Source: Marsupella aquatica
Taxonomy: Eukaryota > Plantae > Marchantiophyta
Assembly (NCBI GenBank): GCA_973895155.1
Contig: OZ316896.1
Location: 7,573,278-7,637,277, forward strand
Length of the DNA stretch: 64,000 bases
Direction: 5' to 3'
Position numbers and translations under genes: made by a program. A model generated the notes under the pieces. The model did no database searches, was not told the origin of the DNA, and saw only the letters and a list, made by a program, of their open reading frames with translations. Positions 8,521-61,893 of this stretch are shown one piece after another (the first letter of the stretch is position 1; each line of letters starts with the position of its first letter).

Positions 8521-8531
8521 GCCTGCGCATG

Positions 8532-21200: not shown

Positions 21201-21692
21201 TCTGGCGCAACTAGAGAAGAATTTGTACAGTATGTAGGGGCCTTGACAGCTATCTTAGTACTGAATTACGGCAGCTTGAGGAAAGAGGTGATTCTTTTCA
21301 AAGGGAAATGGGCAGATCCATCATGGACTCCTAAATCCTCTGCCAGTATGAGGTATTCTGAGTCTGGTCTTTGGCAGGTGAATTTCCATAGAGATCTGGG
21401 TGTGTCCAAGAAAATGGATTACGTTTTCCCAAAGCAAGTGGAGCAGGTTTTCTTCCACCCCAATGAGAAGGGGATAGCATGGAGAACAATCCAACACAAA
21501 GAATCCAGGTCCACAAGGGTGTTAGGTGATTACACAAATGTTGATTTCCATGCTACAATGGAAAACAATGCCAAATTACACATTGAATTGGCTAAAGCCT
21601 GTAGGACTAGAGCAAATCCAGGACCAAGTACTGGTCCCAAACAAGGCAGAGATGCAGAGGGATCTGCAAGAAAGGGTAGGCCTAAGCAGTGA
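18289..21692 (+). pseudogene. CACTA TnpD/Tnp2 transposase pseudogene
   Basis: MYCPCVNC, YFPIIPRLKRLY, HAADSKAW, PRNVRFGLALDGVNPF, DPMHCEKN, LKSHDFH, FPPSFFDVMTHL, WMYPIER, YVFPKQVEQVFF. Stops at 19114, 19150, 20575 and 21189, a frameshift, and an internal deletion near 19548. Confidence 0.93.
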
Positions 21693-22243
21693 ATAGGTTT
21701 TAGGTGTGTGAAGTCCATAGCTGGACTACATGTATGGACTATATATGAAATCAGACTAATGTTTTGCCCATTTGTGCAGTTGGTGAATGCAGCCTGTGAA
21801 AGGAAGATTGCAGGGGTTGTCACATCCTATGAATTAATGCTTATGAGGAGGCCCGAAAGCGGAACATAGAGCATAATGAGTGCATTATGCGTGATCTAGG
21901 ACTGGGGCCAGACTGCATGCTGATGTGTGTGTTAATATGTCTGTTGCAAATTTGATTTAGTAGATATATGGAGTTGTCAGGTTCATGTTCTGTTTTCATA
22001 TTCCAGATTGGTCTCATACTAGTATGGATCCTGTACATAAGTACCATTGTTACTGTGTTGTAGATTCTGCTTGCATGTATGTTTGATCTGCATTGGTGTA
22101 TGTTGATGATTGCTTTGTTCCTTAGAGGCCCAACCACACATGTACAACGACAGAGAGAAAAGCCTACATTGGTGAAAGGTACTTCAACTGGAACATTGCC
22201 AAAGAGGAGGAGCTCTAGACTATCACAAGTTACCAAGGTGAAC

Positions 22244-36700: not shown

Positions 36701-37527
36701 TCCAGTGGCAACCATTTTGGTTCGATCCAAACCAGTGTAGAGTTCAACCAACTCTGACATCCAGTTTGCCCGATGAAAATAGTCACACTTAGTGTCCGTG
36801 GTGTTCGCCGAACAAGACTGTGAAACAAAATTTGCCTTGTCCTTCTGCTTCTTAGAGGAAGATTTGTTGCTCCCATCAATATCAACATTCCATACTTTAT
36901 TATGGACGTCAACCACATCCCATAGAACCCAGGAGCCCTTTGCCTCTTCAATTGTTGCAGCTCCACCATGTGCGTAAGGTAAAGTCTTACTACCATGAAT
37001 CACATCTGTGACTTTTACACTAACCCGAGACTCACCGAGTAATATGTTATGACATCTCTCCATTGGATCGGTCTTGAAAACAACTCCAAAGGCCACACAA
37101 TGGCCAGAGATAAACATTTCAACCTCATCGCCTGGCCTTAGGGTGGTCGAAGCATCCTCCTCTACATTTGCAAAATTATGGATGTTGTTATCTTTTCGAG
37201 TTGAACAACTACCAATACTGATGCATTTTTTAGTAATCTTATCCGCAGATCGATATGCACATGACATATCCCAAATGACACATGAGTCAATGGCATCATG
37301 AAGATTTTCTGCCCTAGGCATTGGAAAAGGGAGCTTCCTAGTCTCACCAAAGGCCTTCTCAATGAGAACCCCAATTCGATTCTCTCCCAGCACAATATTT
37401 TGAACACTCTCTCGCGGATTTGTCTTTTGAACTGTCCCATTTCCAACGTCGTAACCATCGATTGTCAAGGTAACATCATCGCCCCTAGAAAACCTTTGAG
37501 GCATCCTTTTCCTATTTTCTTGCACAC
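33770..37527 (-). pseudogene. DUF7869/Sola1-like DDD/E transposase with N-terminal triplicated beta-rich domain
   Basis: CCKQKC, VCRHAF, FAKC, HLREQMSRRYVY, LCIIHDKMDQGKTWIP, MLTHG..WPGDAD, LTLQMDNSAKDNKN, FLMVGHTHEDVDALFS. ORFs 36470-37525, 35472-36500, 35263-35478 and 34049-35317 are joined by frameshifts. Confidence 0.85.
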
Positions 37528-37579
37528 TGAAAAAAATGGATTAAAACCAAACTCATGCAAATTTTGATTCAGACTACTA

Positions 37580-38460
37580 TCCTCCAATTTTGGATTTGGA
37601 CTAGGACCATCCGAGTCCGGATTTGGACCGGGACCATCCAAGTCTGGATTAGGACTGCAATCCTCTGAGTCTGGATTTGGACTACGATCCTCCGATTCTG
37701 GATTTGGCCTGGGACCATCCGAGTCCGGATTTGGACCAGGACCATCCAAGTTCGGATTTGGACTGCAATCCTCCGAGTCTGGATTTGGACTACAATCCTC
37801 CGATTCTGGATTTGGACTGGGACCATCCGAGTCCGGATTTGGACCGGGACCATCCAAGTCCGGATTTGGACTGCAATCCTTCGAGTCTGGATTTGGACTA
37901 CGATCCTCCAATTCTGGATTTGGACTGGGACCATCCCAGTCCAAGGTTGGACTAGGACCATCCCAATCCAAACTAGGACTTGGACCATCCAAGTCCAAAC
38001 CTGGACTCGGACCATCCCAATCCAAACTTGGACTTGGACCGTCCAAGTCCAAACTTGGACTCGGACCATCCCAATCCAAACTTGGACTCGGACCATCCCA
38101 ATCCAAACTAGGACTTAGACCATCCAAGTCCAAACTAGGACTCGGACCATCCCAATCCAAACTTGGACTCGGACCATCCTAATCCAAAGTTGGACTCGGA
38201 CCATCCAAGTTCAAACTTGGACTCGGATGATCCCAATCCAAAGTTGGACTCGGACCATCATAATCCAAAGTTGGACTCGGACCATCCCAATCCAAACTAG
38301 GACTTGGACCATCCAAGTTCAAACTTGGACTCGTATGATCCCAATCCAAAGTTGGACTCAGATGATCCCAATGCAAACTTGGACTAGGACCATCCGAATC
38401 CAAACTTGGACTAGGACCATCCGAATCCAAACTTGGACTAGGACCATCCTAGACCAACCC
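37580..38460. repeat. About 32 tandem 27-bp quasi-palindromic units (TTGGACT.GGACCATCC.A.TCCAAAC and variants)
   Basis: 27-bp period, seen as 9-aa repeats in ORFs 37465-38160 and 38179-38430. Two subtypes switch near 37940. Confidence 0.95.
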
Positions 38461-39480: not shown

Positions 39481-39715
39481 CCTCCATTCTTTTTTATTGC
39501 CCTAGATTGGACGCCTGCTAAGACGCCACGTGACACGCTGCCACGTGTTAGAAAGATGGAAGTGAATCGCATCCTTGTGATGTCCTACGTGGAAGAAACG
39601 GAGGAGTTTGACCTCTCCTCTATGAGCGACAGTGTGGAACTGGCACTCAAAGACTCTAGACAATTTCAATCACGAATCCCTAGTAAGTATCCATCACCTA
39701 TCCTCCCTAAGTCTT

Positions 39716-39950
39716 AGAGGACTGGGACCATCCGAGTCCAAACTTGGACTCGGACCATCCCAATCCAAACTTGGACTCGGACCATCCAAATCCAAAGTTG
39801 GACTCGGATGATCCCAATCCAAAGTTGGACTCGGACCATCCCAATCCAAAGTTGGACTCGGATGATCCTAATCCATCTAGGAGATTGAATCCTGATTGTA
39901 GGAGCAAGTCTAAAACCATCTCAAGTTGGACTAGGACCATCCTAATCCAA
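39716..39950. repeat. Intronic 27-bp palindromic repeat cluster (same family as 37580-38460)
   Basis: About 6 tandem units plus a copy at 39926-39950, inside predicted intron 39683-40011. Confidence 0.9.
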
Positions 39951-41712
39951 CAAGAGTTATTCGAATGTTGTAAAGGTTTCAAGTCTAACATGGATGACGT
40001 TTATGATGTAGGGAGCGATCTTGTTGTTTTCAAACCCGTGATTGCACCGACCCACTGCCTGGACGGATTCTTACTAGATGAGAGATCCCCACGCTTTCAA
40101 TGGGGGCTTGAGTTCTCAAGAACCCCGCTTAATAATGAAGTGCCATCAACCACGATTGAACCTGTTTTGACCTTAAAGTGCAGAGGAAATGATAGCCTGA
40201 CTTTTGTTTGCGGACCTGTGGTCTCTGTTGGCATTGGAGGGAGAGGGATGAATACGGTCATTCTTGAGATGCACGATAAGTCCTGTTGGGTTAAAGTTAA
40301 CCTTCTGTCAAAGGCATACTCCTCTGAATTCAATGTCGAATGGCACGCAAGTGGGGAATTGAGCGTTTTGTCAATGGGATTTTTTCCAAAGACCTATGAC
40401 ACAAAGAAGTTGGTCGCCGGGGTAACTGGTATGCTTTCAGTCGACATTATGTATGGGTTTCAATATTTGAAACTCAACATGATGAAGCACCAAGGCAATT
40501 TTTCTTTTGCAACTACCTGGACGTTAAGCAATTTACTTGAGAAAGCTGGATTGTTATTGTTGGAGTCGGAGGAGCCTGGTGTTTTAATTGATAAGGATGT
40601 TGCATTTGCTCCCAAGTTTGATTCAGTCAAAGCAAAGCAATGGATAGAATCTTTGTCCAAGGCGAGAAAGCTTCCAGCGGTGAATACAAACCCTGTGCCC
40701 AAGAAAGCGCCAGAGAAAGCTCTAGAACCTACAACAGAGACCGCGGGAACTACAACAGCGACCTCTCAAAGAGCAGTGGGAAAACGAAAACAAAGCCAAA
40801 GGAAACCTTCGGTTGAGAAGAAACTTCCGGTTGAGAAGCCGAGTTGAGAAGCCAGTTGAGAAGCCGAGTACGAGAAGCCAAGTTGAGAAGCCAGTTGAGA
40901 AGAAACGTCCGGTTGAGAAGCCGAGTGCAAGTGAAAAGAGACCAAGACAGAAGAAGAAACAGAAAATTGACAGTGCCATCATGGATGACACTACAAAAAA
41001 CCTAACAGTGCATTCACAAGATGTGGACGAGCAGTTGGACGCTCCTGAGGAGAAGAAGGTCTTAGAAGGTAATGAGGTATTGCAACAAATGGAGCAATAT
41101 TATACGTTTGGGATCAATTCGATATTTCTATTCCTGTAGACAGTATTTTCCCTGCGTCGGCAAGACTCTGTTACAGAATGTTGAATGCAGAACATGTAAA
41201 GGAGGTGGCCAATTCCATGATAAGAAATCCGGGGCATGAACCACACATAGCAGACTTGATTCCTTACACTACAAAACATAGAAACCTAATGCAATATGAC
41301 AACACAGAATCAGATAGAAGGGACTTTGTAGCAGCCGTGAAAAAGGGCGAGGTGCAATTCCTTGCCATTAGCGGTCAACATTCGGCTAGAGCAGCCAGAT
41401 GGATTCGAGAATGGGCAAACAAGGATGCCAAGCTGACAGCATTGGCGAAAAAGCTGGAATTTCGAAAGTCAAGAATATTATCTCATCGAACACCATCGTC
41501 AATATTAGTTGAGCATTCAATGCGATCTAATGCGATCAATAGCACGATGGTGTTTCAATCATGCTTCAAAGATACAGTCATTCATGCTAGGCGACAATTT
41601 GTGGAATGTGGAAAACCTAGCCGTCCAAAACATGGGGACAACAAAACAAACGCTCAAGACAATCAAAAATTTCAGGTACGAAGTGTTACTGGTTGATGGG
41701 TACAATACCGTA

Positions 41713-42110
41713 GATTCATGCACATTCAATAGAATATTTCCACTGATATCGCCTAGTTTTGCGTTGGACTGGGACCATCCCAGTCCAAATGGATTCATGC
41801 ACATTCAGTAGAATCTTTGTCCACTGATATCGTCTAGTTTTGTGTTGGATTGGGATGGTCCTAGTCCAAATGGATTCATGCACATTCAGTAGAATATTTC
41901 CACTGATATCGCCTAGTTTTGCGTTGGACTGGGATGGTCCCAGTCCAAATGGATTCATACACATTCAATAGATTATTTTTCCACTGATACTGTCTAGTTT
42001 TGTTCTGGACTGGGATGGTCCCAGTCCAAACTAAATCATCCACATTCAATAGAATATTTCCACTGATACTGTCTAGTTCTATGTTGGACTGGGATGGTCT
42101 CAGTCCGCAC
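41713..42110. repeat. Intronic ~80-bp tandem repeat (5 copies), each with the hairpin TTGGACTGGGA-NNN-TCCCAGTCCAA
   Basis: Perfect 11-bp arms at 41764-41788 and 41924-41948, inside intron 41676-42170. Confidence 0.93.
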
Positions 42111-45075
42111 CTGAGTGCTATCAAACAATTGAGTTATGGAGAACTAACAGACTTTCCTTTGCAATTGTAGGATTGGTTGGCTCTTGCAAGAATGACCATG
42201 GGAAGGAAAGATTGTCGAAATGTTTACTGGTTACTGTTTGTGGACGATGCTCTTTTTGAGTTATGGAGTTTGGTATGCCAGTTGTGGTTGGATGGGAAAC
42301 TTCCCGATGGAGCTGGGGTAGAAGGAAATGAGAAGTCTGAAAAAGCAATTACTGTTGCCATGTTTCGTTGTTTTGATGGTGAGTTGATCTCACAATGAGA
42401 CATCACAAGAATACTGACGCGGGTGAAGTCAGGAAAGGTATTGCTAAAGAAAGATGCCTCTAATAAATCAGACATGCCATCTATAGAGGAGTTGGCCAAA
42501 GATGTGAAGATCGTGCGGAAACTGAAGTCCCTTATTGAAGACTACTATTGCACCAAGGATGCGGTGAATTTCCCAGAAAATACTAATTGGGGGAAAGTAG
42601 TGGAGGTTCTTCCTACGCTAGCAATTGATTCAGAGTTCAACAGGTGTCGAAGAGCCGCTGGCAACATCTATCTTGCCAACCTTTTAAAACCAAATCATAC
42701 GCGGGAGAGCGCAATCTTGCCGACGGCATTGGCATTCCGCCTAGATGATATATACTGCCAAAAATTTGGTGGAGGATCACGTTCTCGGACCCTACCATGG
42801 GCTACATTTTTTAGCGACAATCTCATGAAGACCATTGATCTAGAGTCATTGCAAGAAGCTCCTCCGACCTGCCCTCTTGCCATTGTTGATTTTAGCCGGC
42901 TTTCGCAAAAACAAGGACTGAAGCAGAGATTCTTGTTCTCTTTGAATACATTGTGGAGCTTCCACAAAATCCCACGATTGTTGTGACGATAATAGTTCAT
43001 CCTGGACAACTTGCATTGAATGTCCATGGTGCCCTTCGTAAACTGGGACAAGAGAAAGCTTTGACCATTCACATTGAGTATGGGAGTTATTCTCGAGATG
43101 ATCAACCGCACCCTCATGACTCATGTTGGGGTGGGGGGATTGAAGAAGTTATCTTTGCGGGGATTTCTCGAGATGAAGACGTCAATTGGAATGAAGTTTT
43201 CAAGCCCAACTATCCAAAGCCAAAATTCTTGTATACTGCAAAGGATGTTGATTATGAAGTATGCAAGATCGACAAGGGAAAGGGGAAGGCTAAGGAATCA
43301 GATGAGGGGACACAAAACGACGACCTAAAAGTGGTTTTGGACCCGGAAGAGGCCGTCAAGATTATGAATATGGCCCCTCAATTTGAGACAGTTGGCAGTC
43401 GCGGAGGGTGGGTTAATCCTCATGCCAAACCCACGCGGATGATCCAAAGGATTATTGAATCCTTGTCAGAACTGGGAGATTTGGTTCTAGATTTTTTCTC
43501 CGGTGGCCAAGTCATGAAGACATCATTTTTTTGCGATAGGGAATGCTTTGTTTATTGTGACTCTCACTCCGAGAGGCATTTTGTGGAAGCTTTTGCTTCC
43601 TACCTTTGCGAGAGAGTTCCCTCACTTAAAGCTCATTGTGAATCACTTGCTGAAAATTCTCGACAATGGGCTACCACTGTTGCGCCTGTAGCTGTTGCTG
43701 TTGAATCCGATGGTTCTGAGTCTGAAGATGTTGCTGACAAAGTGGCTGAAGGCGTAGAGGCATCAGAGGAGGCATATGTCAAGATTTTGGATGACCGTGT
43801 TGGTCAAGGGGAGCCTTATGATGTAGATGATGATATTGGACTTGCACCAAACCGTTCATCTAGTTTAGATGACATCCCTCTGGGGCCCAATGAAGTTCAA
43901 GTTGATGATAACTTGGACAAGGATGATCCCAATCCAACAACGCCGGGAGGACAGATGGAGCAACTGGAAGGAGCAAGGGTTGATACGTTTGATCATCTTT
44001 CTTCAACCAATCTGCTCAGGGGTCTCACTATATGGGGACCTCCCCATCGCCTGCGACGTTTTTAGGCCTCGGACCCCCTAAAATGTAAGAAAAAAAATTT
44101 ATTTATTAACCCCTATAAAGTTGGAATATTCTTGGAATATTCTAAAAATTGGATTAAAAGGACCCTAATGTTCTTATAAGTCTCAAAATTGAATTTAAAA
44201 GACCCTATTGTTCTTCTACAAAAATTCTTAAGTCTTCCCTTAGAACCAATAAAATGACCCTATCCTTCGTCGCACGTGATATGCCATTTTTGTGGAAGTG
44301 AAACCCCCGAGCCAATCTGATCAATGAAGGCGCAACGAGGCTCGGAGATTCAAATGAAGCTGAAACTAAAGAATTGACTCGGGGGGAGACCGAGGGGGAG
44401 ACTGGCGGATTGCTTGTCATTCCGATCAATCCAGGAGGAAATGCATCAACGGCTACTGACAACCAGGCAGGTGCTTCAACTTGTCCTGACACACTCTTTT
44501 CAGCTTCTGATGACAAATTGGTGTTCGTTCGTTCACACTCGGGGAGTCCTACTGTCCTTCCGCTCTCAAAAAAGAAAGGAAATAGAGTTGGATCAACTGG
44601 ATGGAGGTCATTGGAATGCGACGCACGATGTTACGTGTGGAAAAGTGGGCCAAATCGAGGCCAAGAAATATCATTGGATGCTGCTCCTTCAATTCTCAAT
44701 AAGGAGGAGTATAAGAGTGGAGAATTGGGGTTGATAACTCCTGTTTGGACTTCACCTTATTGGGTAGAACAAAGTACTTCAGATGTCAATTTTGAAATCC
44801 AATAGGAGCTTGGTGCTGACATGATTATTGATGAATACGGATCTCTTATTTCGGAATGAAATTCAGCCTTTGACTTTGTATTTATTCATATCAATCTAAA
44901 ATACTTCTCGGTCTCACAAAATGCGCTCACCAATTAAAGTCTCCATATCCGTCTACACATTGTGAGGCTTCTAAAAATGGTATGTAGGTTAATTTTCTTT
45001 TTTGTCAGCCATTGTCTTGTATTTTTGGACTGAGACAATCCTAATCCAAAGTTCACTTTTGGTCTTTTCTCTGAG

Positions 45076-46135
45076 AATGGTGTTTGGTGCACTTGCAGAA
45101 TCGAGACCTGGTCCCCTCAAGCGGAAGTTGCTGATTTTGGACCTTAATAAAATACTTTGGGATTCCATTGAATTCCAAAGCAAGGGCACATCCAAGAATA
45201 TTGTCACCTCAAGTGGAGTGCATTGGGATAGATCAAATGGAACTAGTCGCATGTATACAGAGAGGCCAGGGCTCCATGAGTTTCTAAAGTTGGTTTTTGA
45301 CCGGTTTGACGTTGCAATTTGGACATGTGCTGGGATGTCGCAAACAGTGAAAATGTTGAACATGATGTTCACAATTGAGGAGCGGTTGAAACTGAAGTTT
45401 GTATTCACATAGGTGGAAGCCTTTGACACAGGCATTCAAAGGCGTGACATTACAAATGGAAAGGAAAATGTGCTATTGAAGGATTTTCGGGTGGTATGGA
45501 GTGCATTTGGAAATCTATATGATGAAACCAACACACTCCTTGTGGATGACTCCCCCTTGAAGGCATTTGCCAACCCAGACATGATTGGACTATTTCCAGT
45601 GCCCTACATGCATGCCAATCGTGGAGACAATTTTCTTCTAACAATTCTTTGGCCATGTCTTGAGAAACTGTCACATGCAAGTGACATTCATTGTTATCTT
45701 CTCCTAAACTCTCCAAAGTGGTCTCTATTGCACATTAAGAGAGACAAGGCAAAAAATGAGATTACTTATGATCAACTTAGTAAGAGATGTGCAGCAAAAA
45801 TTTGGAAGTCACAGTATAGGCATAGTGTGCTGGACCTCAATAGCAATGAGATTCCTTGGGCTATGAAGCACCATATATGCAGCTTACGTCCTGAGGTGGA
45901 ACTTGACGATGCACTTGTCACCTCACTTGCTAGATCATTTGTAGGACGGGAATATTCAGGTCTGTATAGAGAAAATCCCAGACACTTTTTGCGGGAGATT
46001 ATAGCAGTTAGGAACAACACCACCAAATTTCATCTCCCTGAAGATAAAGGGAGTTGCAACCGTGACATTAGGGTAGATAGTAAAGGAGACAAAGGCACGT
46101 GCTCAAATAAATATTGTAAGGAGCACTTTGTTTAG
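45076..46135 (+). pseudogene. FCP1-homology/NIF (HAD-family CTD phosphatase-like) protein
   Basis: KRKLLILDLNKIL, ERPGLHEFL..VFDRFDVAIWT, LLKDFRVVW, YDETNTLLVDDSPLKAFANP. One in-frame TAG at 45410-45412 joins the two ORFs. Confidence 0.88.
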
Positions 46136-47383: not shown

Positions 47384-48474
47384 TGCAATCAAAAACAAAT
47401 AACGAGGGCTGTAATGTTTTGGGGAAGAAAAGTCTATGGGAATATGGAGCTTATATCAGTCGAACCTGGGAACTTCACATTAACAGATCCGTTTGTATAA
47501 GACATAAAACATAGTCGACATAGGATCCGTTGGCACCATAAATGAATTTTGTCATTTTTCCCCGATAAGTCCGGATGTCAGACGCATACATACTTCCAAA
47601 AAAGACACCAGAAAAATCTTTAACAGACTCTAAGATATTGTATAGTTGGAACAATTTGAGTAGCGCCTGGCGCTAACTAAAATACCTCAAACATAATGTG
47701 CCCAAAATCTCTAATATTCCATACTAGCGCCTGGCGCTAGTATAGAAAAAATCTCCAGATATACATCAATACTATGAGGTAATTGGATTTAAATGGTCAA
47801 TGAAAATGTGAATTCTCTTAGAACTGTGGATGAAAAATTCTACTTTTCACTAGCGCCAGGCGTTAGTATAGGATGCAAGTAATGTTTCCCAAAAACCATT
47901 AAAACAATAGACATTTCTTTAAATATGGGGGTTGTTTTGACAAAATTTATGTACTAGAGCCACTATTGCAGACCTATTTTATAGCTGTTGTTTTTACTAG
48001 CGCCGGGCACTGCCTTGACAATCATCCCAATTATCTACTTCAAGTGAAGGTGTTTATAATAGCGCCCAACGCTAGTATTCCGAGTAAGAGAGGAAAACGG
48101 TAACATTTAACGATAACTTATGAGTTCCATGTGTGTTACGCTTCTTCTACCGCTTGATTTAGCTAATTAAGTTCTCCGCATACATACATTGGAATCCGCC
48201 AAACTTACGAGCTTCTCGCTTTAATCGAAGCATTTCGCTGAATTCCACCCTCCTTCTAGAGTATATTACTCGTTGAGAGTTGATTAGAGTTCCATAATTT
48301 CATTGTATGATAGTTTGTACGCTTCTGGAAGGAAGACGATGGAGGTATATATTCCCCACTTCATCCGGAGGGTATAGTGCAATTCCTGACCAGGAGCGAG
48401 CTTATTTTGAATCCTCGTAGTCTTCGTTTACTGGTTTAGTTTATACACGTCGTGTAACTCATTCCATAAAATTC

Positions 48475-51400
48475 TTGCCTCCTACTTCTGATAGCACTGT
48501 TTTGCTTCCTAAATCTCTGCGTAGAAAGATGGAGAACCTCAACACGATTGCGATCCAGGATGTTTTGGACTGCGCACTCGCGGAGACTGATGTCATCTCA
48601 AAACATGTCATGTGTTTTGGAAAGGATTATCGTGGATTTGACAAGGAGCCGCCTCGAATCCCTCTATGCCGATTGGTTCATATGGAGGTGGTTCATACTT
48701 TGCAGAAAGACAACTCTTCCATCGAGAAGCTAAAAGACTCATTTCGTAGTATGGGTTACAATTCATCCATAGGAATGCGTTTCTATGTGCAGCCAACGGA
48801 TGAGAATGGAATTGTTCTGACCTGTACCCAAGAGATTCGTGAGTCATGGGATCCAATTTGGCAATTGGAGAACGAGAAGTTTGAGGCTGAATGCGAGGCC
48901 GACCCAGATTTTCTCGTGTTGAAGGATAAGATGTTCTCTGTCTTTGATGGAAATCATAGGCTGTACTCTTGGACGCTTGTTACTGAGGAGAACCCAGACA
49001 ATCCAAAATACCATCCTCGAGTGCTCTGCACAATATTTAAGGGAGACAAGGGATCTGTTATTGAAATTGAGGCAGCTATGCACACCGTCAATCAGTAAGT
49101 TCTTGTTCTTTTCCGGTTACTTCTTTGAATCTTGCGAGTGTTCTATTTAAGAGCGCTCGGCGTTGGTTATAGATCCCGTTATAGATAAATTGTACTTCGA
49201 CTCTAACTCACTGCGTCTCTTCGTGTACTAGGCTTGGCCAAGCCGTTGTTGAGCCATCCCGAATCCTTGATGCAAATAGAATCAAACAAATTCTGGCGCA
49301 TGACCTTGAGTATTACAGTAAACTGATTGACCCGGCTAATTTCAAGAAGTTTGAGAGCATTTGGCTGAAGACTTGGAAGGGGTCATGGTATACGAAGAAG
49401 ATGCCACAGGAAGCTCTTGTTTACATTCTATGTGAGAATAAGATAAAGTCCTATTCGCACCAATTCAAGCTTGACATGGAGGCAGCCAAGGCTCAATGGA
49501 GTCCCTGGTTGGTGGACAAGATTTCCAAACGCCATGCGGCCATGATGAAGGACGCAACCAAAGACTGGGCAGTGAAGTCCTCAAAAATTACGCCCTTGTT
49601 AAGTCCTAAATTTGAAGATTTTCTTAGTACATGTGCAAAAATGTATGCTATCACAAAGAGAAACAAGAGAGAGAAGAAGCCTAACGCCATCGTATGTACA
49701 ATGGACCGCGCCCAATTTTTCACTGCTGTTTCTGCCCTAGACCCAAAGTTACAAAGCACCCTACTTGTGGCACATTGCAATCCTGAGCTACGAAGACAGT
49801 TTTTCCACCCAGAAAGTGTCAACAACGACCCAGTCAAACAATGGTGTCATACTTGGATCACTTGGAATAGTGTAGAGGGAATTGTTGTCGGCATGTTACA
49901 TTCATGTCTGCGTGAAGTAGAGCAAACGATGCCCGCGACTAGATTAGAAGAGTGGAATTGTGGTTTGTTTGATGATCTCGTTCAGTTTGTTACAAATGAA
50001 TTGAAGAGATATGGTAATTCTGTGAAGAGTAAGTTCTTTCACACTATGTGGCCTTCAAAGTATCCAGAAAAAGAAGACTACACCCAGAAAAACCAGAAGC
50101 GGGCTAAAAGGTATCTTTACAGGTTCTACATGCACATGGAGGTAACCAAACCTGATTACTTCTGGGCATATCCTGCAGCTTCCATGAAGTGGATTACAAT
50201 AAGTGAGGATGATGCCATAGCTGATTTGTACTCCATGTACCCAGTGGAGGGCATATTTCCTCCGAGACCTATGACAGAATGGGAGAGAACTCACTACCCC
50301 TGGTATCTAGATACAGATATGGGATTCTCCTTTTGATCAAAGGGAGAAAGATGCATTCCATAAGCTTTCACAGTCCCACATACCAGCAAAAATTGTGTCC
50401 GACATGAAGCAGGGCCTGCTAGACGATGTAGACAAGTCTGCCATAGACTTGCAAAGTATCTGTGAAACGACTATTCTTCATGTGGACCGTAGTCGCAAAC
50501 CTCGAGCGAAAGCAAAAACGGAGTTAGCAGCACCAAGCGAGTCAACAAAATCTGGGAGGAAAAGTGAGTATAGTGTTCCATAGTTTGGCCAGTGCCTGGC
50601 GCTGGCTAGACCTATCATGCGAATTCACATTTCTTTCTAGATTCTTAGGCCTTTGTTGAAACCTAAGTGATTTGCATTTGGTTAGCGCCTGGCGCTAGCT
50701 TGTTTGAATACTCGATATTTACTTGTTCTAACTAGGACCTATTGGTAATTTAGGAGGGAGGAAGTCTAATACTGCGGGAACAGGAGGTACTAAAGTGGAT
50801 GCTACACCTGAAGTTTCTGAGGCAAACATCGGAGCTCGATCGGACCCCATTACTCCTGTCGACAAGGGGAAGGTAATAGTTCCGGTCGACGCCACAAGTA
50901 CCAGGAAGAAATGAAAGAGAGCTATTGAAGGCGGACCTTCTTCAAGGGAGAGTGTTGCAGCATCTGGTGTCCAACGTGAAGTTGGAAACTTCAAAACTAG
51001 AGTGTCTCGTCATGCCATGGTTGAGACAAGCATATCCAAATTTTTTGACTCGACTTTCAACAAGGGGGAATGGGTTAGTAATGTGGAGAAGTGGGGGAAG
51101 GATCTTGTTAAGTCGGGATATAAAGAGAAGGGTGTTGTGCGGGGAGGAAAAGAAAGATCGTTTGGAGTGGATGCGGGTTTCATTTACCTACCGACCGGGT
51201 TCAAACCAATGATCGTAGATAAGAAGGTTCCTAAATGGAACACTCCAGATCACTCCATGGCTAGATCTTTTTTCAAATACATGGATCCATTTCTATCAGA
51301 TGATGGGTTCCTTGCAATTCTACACAATGGGGAGTACGATCCCATGTCTCAAGTCATTGCTGCCTGTCAGGAGTCGAGAAAATTTAAGTGCATATGCACG

Positions 51401-51568
51401 CATAATGTTGTAATGTCTGTCCCAATGTATGCGGCAAAGATAGACCGTCAGGTAATGATCTACTCTTAACTATATCGCATTTTGAGTTATAACTCGTTTA
51501 ACTTGGAGTTGCCAACTGATACTTGGGATTGCTTTCCGCAGATGTTTACCCTCAGGCTGGACATATTT
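48475..51568 (+). pseudogene. Gene B, 5' part: ParB/Srx-like N-terminus and first half of MTase-like fold
   Basis: RIPLCRL..V..LQ..IEKLKDSFRSMGY..MFSVFDGNHRLYSW (ParB GxHR motif). Introns 49095-49231, ~50564-50735 and 51452-51541. VDAGFIYLPTG..WN..FFKYMDPFLSDDGFLAILH corresponds to the motif IV-VI region. Frameshift at about 50320 and TGA at 50912. Confidence 0.82.
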
Positions 51569-52317
51569 CATTGGTACATTTTAGGCATTTTTCCGATACT
51601 AAAAACACGCGTTTCTCAACGCGCCCGATACTAAACACAACGGAAAACTTCCGATACTCCCAGCTACGGAACTTCCGATACTACCCAAATCGAACATTAT
51701 TATCCGATATGTTTTGTATCAAAAACTTTATCCAATACCCATCATATCGGACAATGTCCGAAACATCCTGTATCGCAAATTGAGAGCCGACATGTTTTTC
51801 AGATGTCCGATAATAATAGTATCGAAAGCTAATTCCGATAGGTTTGGTTTCAGACATTTACCGATACAAAATGTATCGGACATATGTTTGCGATACTATT
51901 TACAACGGAAATCATTTGCAAAGGCTGAGGGATCGGTTACTATCTGTTGAAATTTCTATCGGACCCCTCCTCGGCTGCGGGCTTAAGCGTCCGATCTGTG
52001 GAGTATCGGATAGTGGCTTCCGATTTTTATAGTATCGGAAAATCCGATACTTTGAGGATGGGAAGGGGTTTTTTGCTTTGGCAGTACTGATGTGTGTCCG
52101 ATATGTTTCCGATGGTATTTGAATGGGACATATGGGACTTTAGTGTTTTACAATGTATAGGTTGCATGGAATTAATGGATTCAGATATGGGGCATACTTT
52201 AAGCAATAGATATGTATACTGCATGAAATTGTGGACAATTAGAAAAATCATAGAATGCCGATAAAAAGATAGTGCCGGTAAAAATATACATGAAGATGGT
52301 GGGGTCTACAATTTATA

Positions 52318-55300
52318 CTAACTCGTGGGGGGTATGTCTCTATCTTCCACTACAACTACGTTGGGTCTCTCTTGGACTATGGACCGTGATCTGGGAATAT
52401 ACGGCATGACAATGGACCACTCGGGGTCATTGGGATAGGGTAGGTAAAAGCATTGCTCAAGGTGATGTGGGAAGGCAAAGGGATCTGAGGACCTCCAGTT
52501 GGAACTGATGACACTATTTGCGGATGTCTTCAAACGAGTAAAACCGCATGCATCATCTTCACAAGTACGATTGTGGCCTACAAGATTCATCTTGAACCAT
52601 TTGCACTTGAATACCACTTCCTCCAAAGTAGTATGTGCATGGTACTTCACTGTTAGGATCTCCTCAATCTTCCCATAATGGGCCACGGTGGAGCGAATGG
52701 GATTCATGTCTGACATGCTACTCTGGGAATCTTGGGTGAACCAACCCATCACCCCACAATCCTGTGTAGCTGCCCTCTTCTCATCAAGTCGTTCCACACG
52801 AAAATGTCTCCCCTTTGACCACATGGCAGTCCGAGTCGTGACTATAAGTAGTGGACCATGAATCAAGGTACGAAGTTTATCTGTCACGTTTGGGTAGTGT
52901 AATACACTCTCCCCGGTACCCACCAGGGCATCCACTTCTAACAACTTCTCCTTCATGTATGGGTGAAACTTGGGAAATAACCGTGGGCGTCGACTGTTTT
53001 GCTTCTCCTCCTCATAAAATGTTGTCCACTCCCCGACAACCTCGGGTGAGTTATACAACATAAATGTTGTGAGCTGTAAACGCTCTGCTGAGCCTATGAG
53101 ACGCTCTCCAGATGCCCCAGTGAGTCTATCATCCTCGTAGTCAGCCTCTCGTGCCGCCTCATCTATCCATCCCCTAGGAGCACTAGGATCTAGTGTGGCA
53201 ACTATGTTTGTACAGTAAAACATACTCTCTGCTCCAAGATGACGCTCCGCAATGCTACCTTCCACCCTAGCGCGATTAAAGACATATGACTTCATCACCC
53301 CCATATAACGCTCTACCCAATACATCCATCGACAATGTACTGGGCCTGCAATTGCAACCTCGCACACTAAATGTATGAGGAAATGAACCTGACCATCAAA
53401 GAATGAGGGAGGGAGTGCCTTCTCCAACTTGCAGACAACCTCTACTCCAAATATCTCCATGGCAGCAATGTCATCCTCCTGTACCTCCTTTTGACATACC
53501 CATCTTAAGAGCTTACCCAATGACCAAAGGGCATCACGAAGTTCCTCACTACCCAATCCAATAATAGCAACTGGAAGAACATGTTCAAGCAACCGATGAT
53601 AATCATGTGTCTTCAAGAAAGATGGCCATTTTGGAGAATCCTCCCCCCCAAATGCCTTCCTAAGATTGGTACCATAACCTGTGGGAAACCTCATCAACCC
53701 AATACGTCTGCGAAACTCAATGCGCTCTGCCCTTGTCAAAACCCAAGGAGGATGGATGCTAGGGGGAGCACCAGGGGGGTCCAAAGATGGCCAAAAACCC
53801 AAAAGACCATGCATCCCCATCTCCTCACAACTTTCTCTCCAATTGTTATTTTTCTCCCCATATAGATGGCGAATCAATGATTTTCCCACATTCCCCTCAA
53901 TGTGCATAGGGTCTAACAAGTGATTAATGGGCATATCTGACCAATATGGCAATTGTGACAATGCAGACAAACGGGTCATGCCACATCTGAATAATGGTAA
54001 TGGATCACTCGGATCCTGAACTCTCCCCCATACCTCTCTCCAATATGTTGGATCCTTCCGCTAAGGTTGAGGACGAATATCAGGTTGGCCCTCATCAGTA
54101 TCATAAAGGAATGGATCACTCCTCCAAGGATGGTCTGGTGGAAGATATTTAGTATGACCAATGTAAACAATTTTTTGCAGAGTACTTGACTTGGGCCTGG
54201 CCACCCCCTCCAAATCGGGTCCACATGTAGAGCAAGCTCGATAGCCTGATGTTTGCAATCCAGAAACATATCCAAACCCTGCCCAGTGCATAGAAAACAC
54301 ATTAATAAAATAAGGTTCATCAAGGCAAAAATCTGCATAATTGCAATTAAATACAAGGTTTAGGTACTAGAGGAAATAAGGGTTTACCATACCTGGTAAA
54401 TCATGCATGGTCCACATAAGGATGGCCTTTAGAGTAAATACGCGGGATAAACCTCTTGTGTTGTGACGTCCATCATAACAATCCACTCCTCTCCACAGTT
54501 GTATCAACTCATCAATCAATGGCTGCAAGTACACATCAATCTTTTTAACTTGCTTAGGACCCGGAATAATCATGGAGAGTAGTAGTTGACCTTTCTTCAT
54601 GGCCATCCAAGGAGGGATGTTGTAGTTTGTCAACACTACTGGCCACACCAAATATGGTTTGGCTTTTCCTGTCAATGCAAAAGGGCTGATACCGTCTGCT
54701 GCCAAGCCTAGTCAAACATGTCGTGGGTCAATTTTGAACTCTCCCCATCTATCCTCTACAAATCAATTGGCAGGAGAGTCAACCATCATCCGCATGGCAC
54801 TAGAGGGTACAGCCATATCAGAACGATTTTGTGAGTGCCATACCATCATCTCAGCCAACTCTACACATCGGAATTGATGTCGCAATCGAGGGATAAGAGG
54901 AAAGTACCTCATAACTTTTTGCGGTACCTTCCCCGTCAACATGTCATCACGGTACCGTGGCTTCTGACATTTAGGACATGTAGTGGCATTTTCATGCTCA
55001 CCCCTAAAAAGAATGCAATCATCCACACATGCATGTATCACCTCATACTTCAGGCCAATGGACCTCAACACCTGTTTAGCCTCTTTCCAAGAGGCTGGCA
55101 ATGCATTGCCTACTGGCAAAATATGATCATGCAAGGTACGGAAAACATCATCCAAAAGTAGATTGCTTGCCCCATGTCTTTGCTGCAAGTTGAGCAATAA
55201 CATTATTGATGAGAGCCGAGATAACCTACTCCCCTCGAATATGCGAGTACGGGCATGACGTTGCGCCTCCTCCCATTGCTTGTCTTGGGACCCCCTAGAA

Positions 55301-55560
55301 AGATGTGGATGACTAGTCCTTTCATGGGTTGAACCAATGTCCTCCAAACCAATGTCATCGTGATCATCATAGAATTGGTCCATGAGCTCATCCATGGCCC
55401 TCTCCTCATCAAGATGGTCTTGGATAGGATCATCACCATCATGTCGTACCCCATCCTCTTGCCTTTGTGGTTCATGCCCACGGTTGGCCACCATGGCCTC
55501 AACAAGGTGTTGTCGCATAGCTCATGATATTACCCCAATATCAGGCGTTACATATTGATT
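52318..55560 (-). pseudogene. CACTA TnpD/Tnp2 transposase pseudogene
   Basis: IHACVDDCILFRG, MRYFPLIPRL, LGLAADGISPF, YNIPPW, WTMHDLPG, DPMHIEGN, LKTHDYH, WMYWVER, DPFAFPHHLEQCFY. Stops at 55522, 54763 and about 54712. Confidence 0.93.
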
Positions 55561-55682
55561 CTATCATACAACATCAATTAATTAATCTCATCAACACATG
55601 CACTGTTGAACAACATCATTCTCATGTAAACATGTAAAATAAACTGACATATATATATAAAATATGTAAGTCCAAGAAACTA

Positions 55683-57010
55683 TCATGGACGACAACGCAA
55701 GGACAATTTTGGTGCATCCCACTCATACTCACACAATAACTCCTCACCAGCTCTAATGGTCCTAACAGCTACTGTCATGATATGGTCGTCCATATGTTTC
55801 ACAAAATATGGATGTCTAGGTGGACCAAACATTTGAATCCACTCTACATTAGCCTCCAAACCTCTATCTCTACCTGTGGTACTATTGATGTACCCTGCTA
55901 AATTACCGTTCCGAATAGGGTCACCATCAATCATCCAGCAATGCCACGGCCTAGTGAAGACCTCATCCGGGTCTGAGTCCATCCTCAATGTATACACCCC
56001 CCAACTTGGGTGTTGACGCAACAAAATATTCCAACTCTTGGAGTTATATACAGCCCCAATGTAAGGAAAGAGGTGCTCTCCATCATAACCACGTCTCCAT
56101 GGCTTTGGAGGGACCACAATATCCTCCAAAGCAAAAAGACCATATCCTATATCAGGACCAATAGAGGATGCCTTCACTATCCAAGGGCGACCCCATATTT
56201 GAACTGGTTCATCTGTAGGAATAAAATCTGGAAATTTGAAGAGACTTGGAGAAAAGTCCTTCAAAACTTCGGCAGCCCTACCAGTGAGATAGGATAGTCC
56301 AAACCTGCCCTCAACGCAAATATAATCTACGTTACCGGCTGGTCGATCACTAGTACCTAACACCTCCTCTCGTTTGTCTACCTGGTCCAGTGGTCCATAC
56401 TGCCGTCTACGTCTACCAGATCGTGGTCGTGTACGTAGGACCCTAGTAGTCACAACCTCGGGCTGAGAGACCGGTTCCCCCTCTACATGTTCATGTGTGG
56501 GCACGGGAGTGGGGATAGGAGCAGGTGGGCTAAGAGGCATCTGGGCAGGAGGAACTGCAAGCAACTCCCTGGCCCTTGCTAGAAACCCTTCCAACCACAC
56601 AGCTTCAGGAACCAAAGGAGGTGGGGGCCTATGAGGCACCTATTTCAACACACGTACAATGGTTTTACACAAATCAATAAATTAAGTAGTGCCAGGATGT
56701 AAATGAAAGATAATTAAGCAATACCCTAAATTGGAATGCATACATGGAATGAATAGGGGACATAAACATATCTGTACCTGGCTAGGCAAATACCCTGGCA
56801 TATCACCCTCGTGGCGGCCATAGTTCTCGATGTGCTCACAAGTCTCCCACGCATGTCGAACCACAAGTCCCTTACATCTCACACACCAGCAAGGTATGGG
56901 TCCTAGTGGAGCACGAGGACGATCTGGAGGAGGGGGTGGAGGAACCTCCCCCTCAGACGAGCTTGTGTCTGAGTCTGAATCTGACGTGGAACTATCAGAA
57001 GTAGACATCT
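55683..57010 (-). CDS. Transposase-associated Zn domain fused by splicing to a SET domain
   Basis: Exon ending 56778 (IPCWCVRC..HIENYGRH) joins in phase 0 to the exon starting 56639. SET motifs: VKASSI..GYGLFALEDI, FPYIG, IDG..GNLAGYINS, ANVE, VAVRTIRAGEELLCEY. Confidence 0.85.
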
Positions 57011-57326
57011 GCATGCATGAAGTACACTCTGAATTCATGTAAGCTGCATAAAAGAAGACAAGTGTTGGAGTATCAAAATAGAATTAATTAATGCATGAGA
57101 TACAAAAGTCCTGTTGTACCTCAATGATACCCGCGCTTTGCCAGCCTACTGTGTCGTATTTTCTACACACAAGGTGTGGGACATCCAAAATCTCTGCATA
57201 TATGGGTGAGCATTTTGCTAATGAGCATACTAATCTGTAAGTGCGAAAGAGTGTAGGAAGAACACACCACATATAAAAAAATTCCAACATACAAATTAAG
57301 TGTAAATGACGCGGCTCGTGAAGCGG

Positions 57327-58027
57327 GGACATCATACCTCCTGGATGCGCGGTCTCACACTATGCATAGTGCATTGTCCAAAACAAAACCTATCTACCCC
57401 CTCACAAACATTGAACCACCCCTCCAAACGCAAGGTACTATGCATCAAATCCAACAAAACCATTAGCCTAGCTAATATATGGAGGTTGAACCTTATCCTA
57501 AGAAAAGGTGTAACCTTATCCTAGTAAAACCCCATAACCCTAAGCCCATAAACCCCTCCAAAGAAATGATCCAAATAGCTTTCACCAAGAAATGGTTCGT
57601 ACAAAAACTTCTTGTAGTATTTTGTCTATCATATATCATAGTATTGAGTTCCCATCACCACAACCATCCCTAAATTTGCAAGGAACTTGCAAGAGGACAT
57701 CATACCTCCTGGATGCACAGTTTCATGCATAGTGCATTGTCCAAAATCGAAACCTCCCTACCCCCTCAAAAAAAGTTAACCACCCCTCCAAAAGCAAGGT
57801 ACTACACATCAAATCCAAACACAAAGATTAGCCTAATGAAGGGGTTTAATATTATCCTAACAAAAGGTAGAATGTTATACTAATAGAACCTCTACGTACA
57901 CCCATAATCCCCTATAAAGAAATGAAACAAAAGGCTTTCACCCGAAAATGGTTCATACAAAAACTTCTTGTAGTATTTTCTTGATCCTATATTACATATC
58001 ATAGTATTGAGTTCCCATCACCACAAC
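57327..58027. repeat. Imperfect ~370-bp direct duplication
   Basis: GGACATCATACCTCCTGGATGC...GTATTGAGTTCCCATCACCACAAC occurs from about 57327 and about 57694. Confidence 0.88.
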
Positions 58028-58575
58028 GTAACCACCCCTAAAACACCAAGACTCTATACACAATTGCATCATTAATTAGAGCCCAATATATTAAGCATGC
58101 AAGACCATAGCTTATCAAAAAATTATGAAGTCCGGTACAAACCCCAAAATTTTTTCTCCGCAACAAAGAAACTTGCAAGAGGTCCCTCTACATGCATGAC
58201 ACGTTCACTGTCCCGTTCACATATGTAGAGCCCTACAAAACGCGGATTCAAATATGAAAGCAAATAATAACTCCAACCATGTGCCCTTACCCCATACAAA
58301 ACCTAAATATCCTAACTTATACTCTAAACCCTCCAATCCCATACCCAACCCAAATTCAAAACATTATATTGGACCCCCTTTGGGAAAGCCAAGAGGTATC
58401 CGATATAACTTCATGAGGGGTCCGATGCAATAGGAAACGGGCCACACTTGGTAAATACACGGCCACAAGAAAAGGACGAGGGGTCCGAAGCAGATAGTTT
58501 CGGAAAGTCCAATTGCGTGTCTTATACCTTTGGTTTCGCAAAGTCTGAAACAGAAAGAATCGGAAGCAGCAGGTT

Positions 58576-61040
58576 TTGTTTCGGAAAAAAGAACCGATGC
58601 AGGTGCGAAGACCCGCGCGTCGGGCCCCATTTCACACTTGGTGTTTTTCAAATTTTTTGAAGCTGGATCAAGGAGGAGAGCTTGAAGGAGGAGGAGAGAT
58701 GGAGGGGGGCGGGGGATCAGGTGGTGGGGGAGACGAAGGGGGATCAGGTGGTGGTGGAGAGCAAGGGGGACCGTCCCAGCCATACAATGAAGTTATGAGG
58801 GACATTTTTGTGGCCAAGGCAGGGCTGAGTGTGGAGGACGCAGAGAGAGTAGTCCCACTCCTCCAAATGCTGATTGATGCCTCTCGGCGTGAGGCAGAGA
58901 AGACTGCTGCTTCAAGCATTGCAAGTGAGAAGGAGGCAAAGAAGAGGAAGAAAGAGGCAAAGAGAGGCAAGGGGGATGCAGAGGAGACACTGTCTCCAAG
59001 AAAACGAGAGAAAAAGCTTCGAAACGAAGCTAGGGCAATTGAGAAGGTGCGATTGGAGGAGCAGAGGCGAAAGGAGGCAGAGAGAGCTCTCAGGCCTGAG
59101 CTAGCTCTCAATTCGGGTGGTGGTCCATTGCCTAAGAGCTACCATCTATTCCGAAGCCAATTCAAGCAGGTGCTGAGGGCCAATTTGGGGCCACTGGATT
59201 ACTGGGGCAAGAAGAAGGAGGAAGAGAGATTGAGAATCAGAGAGCAGGTGAAGGAACGGTTCAGGAACGAGGCCTACATTGATGACAGGTTCCTAAACAA
59301 ATGAATTTCAGCATCACTCTCAGACATGCGCAATCATCAGCGAGAGAAATTCAGAAAGTACCTTGGAGATATGGCAGTGGATGCAGAGGTGATCAGGGAG
59401 GAGGGTTGTCCAGACGATGTTTCCCCGGATGAGTGGGCGGCTTGGCTTGAGGAGGAACTCTCAGTCCGTGCCTGGCTGAAAAGAAGACATTGGGACAACA
59501 AAATTAGGCTGGCAGAGGAGAAGCGAAAGGCTGGGGAGAATGTTGATATCCTCCCCCTTCAACAGAACCTGCAACAATGAGCAGCTCAGGCAGCAAGACT
59601 CCCCAAACCACCAAGGCACATCATAGCAGCATTGGAGAGAGTGCAGGGGAGGCCAACCATCACTCATCGGATGGGGCAAGGCGGCTCCAATCGATTGAAG
59701 GCTGAGTTTGTAAGTGCCCTCCCTCTCCTCCCCACCTCGACTCCCTGATCACCTGACTCCTCGCACGAAGAATGAGTTGTTTGTGCCTTATGTCTTTTGT
59801 TTAAACCCTTTGCAAAACTCATTTTTGCTCTCAGGCTTGTTCTTTCCGATACTCATCCGATAGGTTTTGCATCGGAAGCAACATCGGACACCGTGTCATG
59901 CCATTTTTCTTGTTACGCATCCGATAGACGTCCGATGCAGGATGTATCGGACTTTGCATCGGACCCCTCGGCATAACATTTTGAATGAACGTACTTAACG
60001 TTAATTTTTTACTAGGGTAGAGTATAAGTTAGGGTGAACTATGGTTTAAGGTTACATTAGGGCTATGTAGGGTGGCTTGGTTTAGGGTAGGGCACGCTAA
60101 TACTAGATTTGATATTAACCTGGCCTCTATGGTTTGGATCTTTAAATTTCAGGAGTGGGAGTATGGTCGCCCTATTGCGCCGTTGGAGAGGAATTTGGCA
60201 AAGGATGGACCCCGCGCTCTAAAGCGCCACCTTGAGGATGAGTTGGGAGAGGTAAGTGTTCACCCTAGGTTGATATAATGTTTAAGGTTGTCATGAATTT
60301 GTTAGAGTTATGGTCGGGACCATTCATTCTAACTGCAATTAAACCCTATTGCACAGGATGAGGAGGGGTCTGGGTTAGAGGAGTTGGACTCAGATTCTGA
60401 GCAGGATGCTGAGGCAGGGTTGGGGAGGGTGCCCACAGTCACCCCTACTCCTCAGGTCCGAGGTATTGTTGCCCCATCTGGTGCCGTTGCCCCATCAGCA
60501 GGGAGGGGTGGGTCACATGCTGCTGATGGTGTGGGCTCCCATCGCTCTGGAGCATCACGGGGTGCGGGGCCCAGGCACTCAGGGGGTAGTAGAGGTGATG
60601 GCATGGGACAAGGCGATCACGTAGGAGTATCTGGTGCAGGTGGCCCTTCCCGACGAGGTAGTGGCGACGTGCCGGATGGTGGATCTAGAGGGCGCGCACC
60701 ATCTCGTGAGTCTGGTGGGAGTACAGCACGACATGGGCCACCCACAGGATCTGTCGGCGCACCATCCCATCACTCTAGCAGGTCTGCGGGAGGAGCTGAG
60801 GCATCCTTTCACTCTGTTGTGTCGGGGGTTGGTGGGACATCTACCTTGCCTGACCACCCTAGCGGTGCATCTAGTGGGTCAGGGTCTAGGCCTGCATCAG
60901 GCCAACCCATGCCATCTAGTGAGCAGGTGGCTGCCACGGTTGTGGGCAGCCAGAGGGAGGAGGGCTCTCATGATGCTAGACCTGTACCACCCCTTTGTTC
61001 TCGCCCAAAGAAGAAGAAGGGACGCAACACACCTTTTTAG
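58576..61040 (+). pseudogene. TnpA/Ptta-like gene of CACTA-3, multi-exon, divergent from TnpD
   Basis: W.KK.EEER..I.EQVKERF, CPDDVSPDEWAAW and THRMGQGG (compare SHFGRGG at about 23430). TGA stops at 59302 and 59578. Gly/Ser-rich last exon. Confidence 0.65.
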
Positions 61041-61893
61041 AGGTTAGTTGCATTTAGGTGGCCGGGTATCTAGTGCTAGACAGCTTTGATTAGACACTCA
61101 CTAGGAGGTACCTTGTATATAGCTCAGTGTAGTCTCTAGTCAAAGCTCTCTTTACATCTTCTATCGTGCCATCACGACCAGGATGGGTCTACCCAGTAGG
61201 CCTAATCCATTTTGTACATATTAGGGTGATACCCTTTTTGAATATGATATTTTGACCTCGTGTTTATAGCATTATCTTTGGTTCCTAATTGGTGTATGTC
61301 ACCTTCAACCCTAAACCAATACCCAAACCCCCAAAAAACCACCCATGAAACCCTGTATTCCACCCCCAGAACATTTGATAATCCGTTGCAAGTCCGTTAC
61401 CATCCGTATCGGTAATATAGCAGTGTCCGATGCTGCTGCCTTCAAACTTTCCCATCCCCAACGCATCGGACCCCTCCTTGAGGGTTCCCATCTTAAACAT
61501 ATCGGATAGTCCGATACAAAAACTAACGCACTTTCCGTTATTATAAATAATGCAATGTCCGATAAAAATTACTTTGCAAATTGCCATATCAAATATATCG
61601 GACATCCCGATGTAAATAGTATCGGACATAGGAAATCGTCGTGTGCCATCGCGTGTTAATTATCCGATTCATTTTACATCGGACATAAAATATCCATAAC
61701 ACATTACGATGGAACATCCGTTGTCCAAAATATTGGAAAGTCCGATGGAAGTCCGATGGTCGATATGCGATGGTTTACGCATCGCAAAGTGCGTTGGGAA
61801 TAGCATCGGATGATAGAAATTTTTGCGTCAATTTTCCTCAAGGGATCCGATGTAAATCCTATCGAATAAAGGCCCAAAAATGTACTAGTGTTT

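Follow-up and report, generated by a model that had tools for sequence, protein, structure and literature searches.

A SET-domain exon embedded in the transposase gene of a CACTA transposon from the liverwort Marsupella aquatica, and its possible use by alternative splicing

The classic case of two transposon proteins made from one gene by alternative splicing is En/Spm, which produces TnpA and TnpD in this way (accessible part of PMC13547354; that of PMC4158355 adds little). SET domains have also been described in transposons: according to the accessible parts of the sources, HarbingerS and oomycete MuDR families carry SET lysine methyltransferase genes (Kojima and Jurka 2014, Repbase Reports, as cited in PMC12730594, bioRxiv 2025.02.11.637652), red-algal Plavaka elements of the EnSpm superfamily have an accessory gene, PAG2, with a SET domain (bioRxiv 2025.02.11.637652) and Phytophthora Helentrons contain a SET ORF with conserved cofactor sites (PMC4067079). 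In the same partial texts the ability to bind its own sequence and to modify it is said to be known for VANDAL alone among transposons (bioRxiv 2025.02.11.637652), and transposable elements of liverworts are described as partly silenced via H3K27me3 (bioRxiv 2022.10.24.513474). How transposons evade or exploit chromatin silencing by the host is an open question on which the SET protein described here bears. SET-carrying transposons are thus already known, and it is the nested, exon-sharing form that was not found in print: our literature search gave no description of a land-plant Tnp2 gene with a nested SET exon or of such an exon in a bryophyte CACTA element, one could stand in Repbase (entries or reports), in subscription papers or in the Bostrychia supplement, which lay outside the search, and the accessible parts of PMC11982613 and bioRxiv 2022.10.24.513474 do not mention such SET-bearing elements.

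The locus lies in a stretch of 64,000 nucleotides of M. aquatica (contig OZ316896.1, positions 7,573,278 to 7,637,277 of the forward strand), referred to as the window; positions are counted from its first letter. The region 51569–61890 is a single CACTA transposon (Table 1). It has short TIRs of the CACTA/G type (14 bp with two changes between the ends, one of which begins with CACTAG), a 3-bp target site duplication (TSD) with a corresponding empty site, TCCGAT/ATCGGA clusters as subterminal repeats at both ends and a DDE transposase of the TnpD/Tnp2 type. The empty site was seen in contigs of four out of four runs as a joint from 51565 to 61891, skipping 10,325 letters with 3 letters shared, and the contigs of the runs revealed that the element is multi-copy and polymorphic. 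It sits inside a multi-copy repeat, the empty site being deeply covered, and the left-flank repeat has a 65–70% identical paralog within the window (48421–51469 and 26245–27767). The plus-strand gene at 58699–61040, which is divergent from the transposase gene, probably encodes a TnpA-type protein. Related loci (L005, L006, L008, L010, L027–L029, L031 and L032) contain homologs of it in the corresponding place, upstream of the Zn exon and on the strand opposite to it. It gave no useful match in Pfam or the Atlas, and stops are present in this copy at about 59302 and 59578.

Table 1 Features of the CACTA element in window coordinates (strand: -, minus; +, plus;., none assigned).
Feature	Position	Strand	Basis
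Whole CACTA element, 10,322 bp	51569..61890	-	ends, TSD, empty-site joint
TSD TTT (51566-51568) and left TIR CATTGGTACATTTT, identity to right TIR 12/14	51566..51582	.	
Subterminal TCCGAT/ATCGGA repeats, direct and inverted, left end	51590..52135	.	
Last TnpD exon: DUF4218, DUF4216; stop at 54063 in this copy	52318..54278	-	
TnpD exon: N-terminal part and Transposase_21; stops 55524, 54765, 54714 in this copy	54393..55560	-	
Spacer after the SET stop, ending with the conserved ATAG/AAT acceptor of TnpD	55561..55682	-	
SET exon, 957 nt, 318 codons and stop: helix, Pro/Arg-rich linker, SET domain	55683..56639	-	
Internal GT, proposed second donor, CAG/GTAGAC; in this copy, not conserved	56380..56381	-	
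Intron 1, 138 nt, 32% GC, GT...AG	56640..56777	-	
First coding exon: Ser/Pro leader and CxCxxC...HIxxYGRH Zn finger, phase-0 donor	56778..57008	-	likeness to transposase-associated domain
Tandem duplication of ~360 bp between the two divergent genes	57327..58027	.	
Divergent intron-containing gene, probably TnpA-type accessory protein	58699..61040	+	homologs, same place in related loci
Subterminal TCCGAT/ATCGGA repeats, right end	61390..61872	.	
Right TIR (minus-strand reading CACTAGTACATTTT, at 61890) and TSD TTT (61891-61893)	61877..61893	.	

TnpD was recognised by matches to PF02992 (E 7.5e-33), DUF4218 (E 2e-29) and DUF4216 (E 7e-7, slightly under the cut-off), and its exons are separated by an intron of 114 nt at 54392–54279. 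Acidic motifs at 54702, 54411 and 53319 are presumably the DDE triad. The TGA at 55524, 12 codons past the TnpD acceptor, is private to this copy, since all covering contigs, in four of four runs, carry another base there; the same is true of essentially all contigs covering the stop at 54063, and the stops at 54765 and 54714 are absent from the 40 variants listed. The sequence-only reading had described the SET frame as open and TnpD as broken, and the counts agree (0 versus 4 in-frame stops), but its hint that SET has outlived TnpD is not significant, zero stops in 395 codons at the stop rate of TnpD having P = 0.22. Domestication of the SET domain after death of the transposase was rejected with this value and with the multi-copy, polymorphic state of the element.

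The Zn exon starts at ATG 57008 or 57014 and ends with the donor CAG/GTACAG at 56778. Joined in phase 0 to the acceptor AATAG/GTG at 56639, it continues into the SET exon and gives an open protein of 395 aa, Zn-SET, with the landmarks GxG (165–167), Y193, N252–S253, Y305 and W307 in the SET exon. The best homolog, a protein of Calypogeia fissa, is 73% identical, in keeping with a liverwort host. A direct join of 56778 to 55560 is also in phase 0 and gives a TnpD of 1,119 aa with the finger; the AG of this acceptor, at 55562–55561, is in phase 0 with the TnpD frame. By itself the Zn exon had no match to PF13963 in Pfam, and it aligned with the fingers of two SET-less TnpD genes of the same window (E 3e-4, probability 40%), which match PF13963 weakly, under the cut-off. 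Those two genes have the Zn motif at the N-terminus, and the TnpD exon of the element studied has none of its own. A short predicted helix stands at the start of the SET exon (56555–56639, minus strand) and another at the start of the TnpD exon (55560–55490, minus strand). By eye these helices loosely resemble the helix SSDEEW that follows the Zn finger in SET-less TnpD, which could mean that the SET exon originated by duplication of the 5' part of TnpD.

Further features of the window lie outside this element. The region 2210–8547 (minus strand) holds a second CACTA TnpD, with a Zn finger contiguous with the transposase; two ORFs immediately upstream of this TnpD and in the same orientation, one with a pair of BRCT domains (6375–7292) and one with NSD-type PHD fingers (7840–8547), are possibly chromatin-reader cargo. 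In the region 18253–23537 (plus strand) a third, SET-less CACTA TnpD with an N-terminal Zn finger is followed by ORF 22929–23537, the HFGRGGH motif of which resembles HRMGQGG in the divergent gene of the element studied. ORFs at 34049–37540 (minus strand) belong to another likely DNA transposon (DUF7869, E 1e-38). An ORF cluster at 41076–46135 (plus strand) includes a weak N6_N4 DNA methylase match (42896–44065, E 1e-5, slightly under the cut-off) and a NIF phosphatase-like ORF (45413–46135); a large element may carry these ORFs as accessory genes, which is reminiscent of the methylase cassette of Plavaka. Tandem arrays with a period of 27 bp, open in several frames, were found at 37465–38460 and 39711–39950.

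Scanning of metagenome contigs yielded 35 loci, most of them copies of one subfamily with a SET ~42% identical to that of the window; L001 represents a third subfamily with a SET of 47% identity. The sequence-only reading had placed the SET exon inside the TnpD transcription unit and had named absence of SET from sister elements as evidence to the contrary. Indeed, the exon lies between the Zn exon and TnpD and is common to sister elements: TnpD follows directly after SET in 15 of the 35 metagenome loci, as it does in gene models of Riccia, a Zn motif precedes SET in 15 of 35, and all three parts are visible in L007, L010 and L025. Most of the 20 loci without TnpD (16) end at most 460 nt from the SET match; in L021, L033 and L034 the SET breaks off and L035 is a weak unrelated match. 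In L033, at 488, the end CACTAGTA right after the broken-off SET suggests a nested CACTA insertion.

The SET family is broad, with 133 clusters at 50% identity (at least two of them spurious) matched in a profile search. Twenty matched clusters were looked up and seven of these were named, six from Riccia sorocarpa and one from Calypogeia fissa. SET is fused to TnpD in the Riccia gene models P0063 and P0082 and in P0092, Zn is joined to SET in P0025, P0028 and P0036 (Riccia) and in P0001 (Calypogeia), and P0031 contains Zn and SET within one ORF of a 2,141-nt contig. Since the Riccia models join Zn to SET or SET to TnpD, the order holds in a thalloid liverwort too, with the proviso that the Riccia and Calypogeia gene models are predictions and may merely follow the same signals. 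In both genera transposon SETs are annotated as anonymous host SET genes, and therefore counts of bryophyte chromatin genes are inflated. In a tree of the family (59 sequences, FastTree, midpoint root; host, viral and bacterial outgroups not included) the SET of the window grouped with P0005, P0001 (Calypogeia), P0002 and P0047 with a support of 1.0. Two distant members of the SET family from C. fissa, P0078 and P0155, have a different, Cys/His-rich N-terminus and could represent another element or a gene that has been domesticated. None of 51 pattern matches in viral contigs was confirmed, and the two confirmed among 70 in prokaryote genomes were ordinary small SETs at 28–29%. The look-alikes in the Atlas and BFVD are haptophyte and giant-virus SETs with an identity of at most 20%, where given; we regard this as a generic likeness of minimal SETs and not as a sign of viral origin.

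The splice sites were compared among these loci. All 14 loci in which the motif search found the Zn finger have a phase-0 donor after the Zn exon and an AATAG acceptor that opens the SET frame, so that the in-frame splice of the Zn exon into the SET ORF, predicted from the letters of the window, gained support; the distance from the finger to the phase-0 GT is 36 nt in the loci and 33 nt in the window. In diverged copies represented by contigs of the runs, likeness was lost within 56653–56775 and kept on both sides of intron 1. The runs consist of contigs throughout, and among the joints listed for them none lies at 56778/56639, 56778/55560 or 56382/55560. The ATAG/AAT acceptor of TnpD was found in 14 of 15 loci with TnpD, in 13 of them in phase 0, and also at the very end of L001; the exceptions are L004, which is frameshifted downstream, and L017, which has lost the G. 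Thus, the three sites 56778, 56639 and 55560 are conserved in phase 0 over three subfamilies whose SETs are ~42–47% identical to that of the window. Because one subfamily accounts for 13 of the 14 loci with Zn and for all 15 with TnpD, this corresponds to only ~3 independent observations of the splice sites (window, L001 and main subfamily).

We favour the reading, with a probability of about 60%, that a single Zn exon has the choice of two acceptors, 56639 for Zn-SET and 55560 for TnpD. One promoter would give rise to one pre-mRNA containing the Zn exon. Use of the near acceptor, with the transcript ending after the SET stop, would yield the 395-aa Zn-SET; use of the far acceptor would skip the whole SET exon and yield the 1,119-aa TnpD. 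The SET exon would then be an alternative last exon within the first intron of the transposase. This one-donor/two-acceptor model is the simpler one; the direct junction 56778/55560 uses only conserved sites, and in this simpler form the earlier proposal that one locus could make either Zn-SET or the transposase survives. Counting against it, the far junction would remove an intron of 1,217 nt that is mostly GC-rich exon. Further, a search for full-length spliced TnpD at 1e-30, which was too strict, and one for longer Zn-exon proteins, both weak searches, revealed no database protein of the SET-bearing family in which Zn is joined directly to TnpD.

The presence of Zn-SET joins among database proteins, with Zn–TnpD joins not found, is what would be expected if the Zn exon belonged to SET only. 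TnpD would then start from its own ATG at 55518, on a separate or dicistronic RNA or after a non-coding leader spliced to 55560, and SET would be an ordinary accessory gene in tandem which has acquired the Zn exon. In the window as well as in the main related subfamily the TnpD exon has a Met after its first 7–14 codons, and therefore TnpD could start there; besides, separate tandem genes occur in some Arabidopsis En/Spm families (accessible part of PMC13547354). We nevertheless regard separate expression of TnpD as unlikely. The acceptor is in phase 0, and the stretch between it and the Met is open too, although neither would be needed after a non-coding leader. Moreover, the SET-less TnpD genes of the window bear an N-terminal Zn finger, and merely 122 nt of AT-rich spacer (26% GC) separate the SET stop from the acceptor.

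TnpD had originally been routed through a second donor inside the SET ORF. The site as such is real: CAG/GTAGAC lies at 56381–56380 in phase 0 and the acceptor ending at 55561 is in the frame of TnpD. With intron 1 always removed and 56381 joined to 55560, a TnpD of 1,205 aa with the first 86 residues of the SET exon would result, from a frame that is open except for the four stops of this copy and with a shorter intron (821 nt). The donor matches the consensus at 6 of 9 positions, equal to the Zn donor, and 56381 is not among the 40 variants listed for close copies. The route is, however, probably wrong, and we consider it improbable, because the donor is not conserved in intact relatives and sister copies have AT in its place. 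A phase-0 donor with a match of at least 6/9 was absent from the whole SET exon in 11 of 14 relatives; the exceptions are the frameshifted copies L007 and L029 and also L001, in which the site lies inside the SET core, and in the pre-SET part of the exon no intact copy among the 14 related loci has such a donor. The GT at 56381 reads AT in four loose-end rows of sister-subfamily contigs (X2 at 56398, X5 at 56398 and 56401, X6 at 56396), all ungapped, with CAC, CAT or AAC followed by ATA in place of CAG GTA when read by eye against the window. Such a site is no more than expected by chance: when the codons of that stretch were shuffled, 59% of the shuffles had a phase-0 donor of equal quality and 8% had CAGGTA itself.

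Both products of the one-donor/two-acceptor model would carry the finger, and one of them would carry a SET domain. The SET exon matches Pfam PF00856 (E 3.4e-6, above the cut-off), and the predicted model, although of modest confidence (mean pLDDT 58.9), has the fold expected of a SET lysine methyltransferase. Foldseek returned 270 chains at E ≤ 0.001, and those among the matches listed were SET proteins. In the structure comparison SETD8 ranked first (Z 10.8, rmsd 4.1, 141 aligned) in a tie that also includes EZH2, MLL1, yeast Set1 and SET7/9, so that no substrate can be read from the structure; SETD8 was also on top of the sequence list, weakly (E 0.35). GxG, YxG and the C-terminal GEEL..Y tyrosine were all found, and we take these columns to have the catalytic and cofactor roles of the SET motifs. 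Among the homologs covering each column, G165 is kept in 99/103, G167 in 101/105, E300 in 93/95, Y305 in 87/88 and N252 in 104/115; position 193 is Y or F in 107/109, and an aromatic residue (W, F or Y) occupies position 307 in 65/76. The motif at the place of NHS reads YINST in the window, as had been noted. In register with the bacterial WINHSC (L037), position 253 is Ser in 107 of 115 homologs and His in none, and INST is therefore a signature of the family and not a sign of decay. Two residues before the last tyrosine mostly C, A, I, V or T is found, not Tyr, which presumably would allow transfer of more than one methyl group.

The dN/dS of L001 versus three copies of the main subfamily was 0.28–0.32, and versus the window it was ~0.35 (range to 0.36) with synonymous sites near saturation. 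Near-identical copies of the main related subfamily had a dN/dS of 0.75 and stops in 6 of 13, as dead insertions decay. With the catalytic tyrosine kept and this dN/dS between subfamilies, Zn-SET is probably an active SAM-dependent lysine methyltransferase. That the SET exon is passive or catalytically dead cargo, be it a captured fragment or a binder of methyl-lysine or SAM without activity, is very improbable: the missing NHS histidine and the stops and high dN/dS among near-identical copies would fit, but the between-subfamily dN/dS is ~0.3, the catalytic positions are nearly invariant in ~100 homologs and decay of recent copies after insertion is normal for transposons.

As to the function of the predicted splice switch, Zn-SET would methylate a lysine, and we lean slightly towards a histone as its substrate. 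The shared Zn finger might bring Zn-SET to the DNA of the element or to the transposase complex and thereby let it reset the chromatin of the copies, as an anti-silencing or a self-limiting activity; this part, drawn by analogy, is possible and put forward tentatively. Whether the element invests in mobility or in chromatin control would then depend on which acceptor is used. Taken to its full extent, the picture would be that of a bryophyte-wide CACTA lineage that obtains a histone methyltransferase of its own from a splice isoform of the transposase gene, targets it to its own copies by the Zn finger and switches between jumping and rewriting of chromatin by 3' splice-site choice, a combination that we hold to be doubtful as a whole. 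If true, a land-plant transposon would counter or tune silencing by the host with a SET enzyme of its own, from an NS-motif subfamily unlike the enzymes of the host. As a small, conserved, element-encoded bryophyte SET protein, Zn-SET is directly testable.

Compared with described SET enzymes (SETD8/KMT5A, the SET of MLL1, SET7/9 and small viral SETs), Zn-SET shares the fold and the catalytic tyrosines but has NS in place of NH and lacks both a Tyr or Phe at the switch position and a pre- or post-SET Cys cluster; because of 18–30% identity, tied Z-scores and divergent motifs it is not assignable to a SET subfamily or substrate. Phytophthora Helentrons are rolling-circle elements with a stand-alone, intronless, Clr4-like ORF (accessible part of PMC4067079). 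HarbingerS and the oomycete MuDR families are, like the element studied, DNA transposons with a SET, but belong to other superfamilies and hosts and have it as an accessory gene, and the accessible text on them does not mention sharing of a transposase exon. VANC of VANDAL is a possible functional analogy, being an element-encoded factor that alters the epigenetic state of its own copies (bioRxiv 2025.02.11.637652, PMC12730594), although it is not described as a SET enzyme in the parts of these sources drawn on here. PAG2 of Plavaka is, as far as the accessible text goes, a separate gene of a three-gene cassette that combines a DNA methylase with a SET; here this combination in one separate gene was not found and PF00856 is the only domain matched in the SET exon, which has no methylase domain and lies inside the gene of a transposase of the plant Tnp2 type. 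Maize En/Spm and Arabidopsis EN/SPM3 and EN/SPM7 have CACTA ends, a 3-bp TSD and Tnp2 in common with the element and make two proteins from one gene by alternative splicing (accessible part of PMC13547354). There the products are TnpA and TnpD, whereas here the TnpA-like gene is separate and divergent and the second predicted product is a SET protein.
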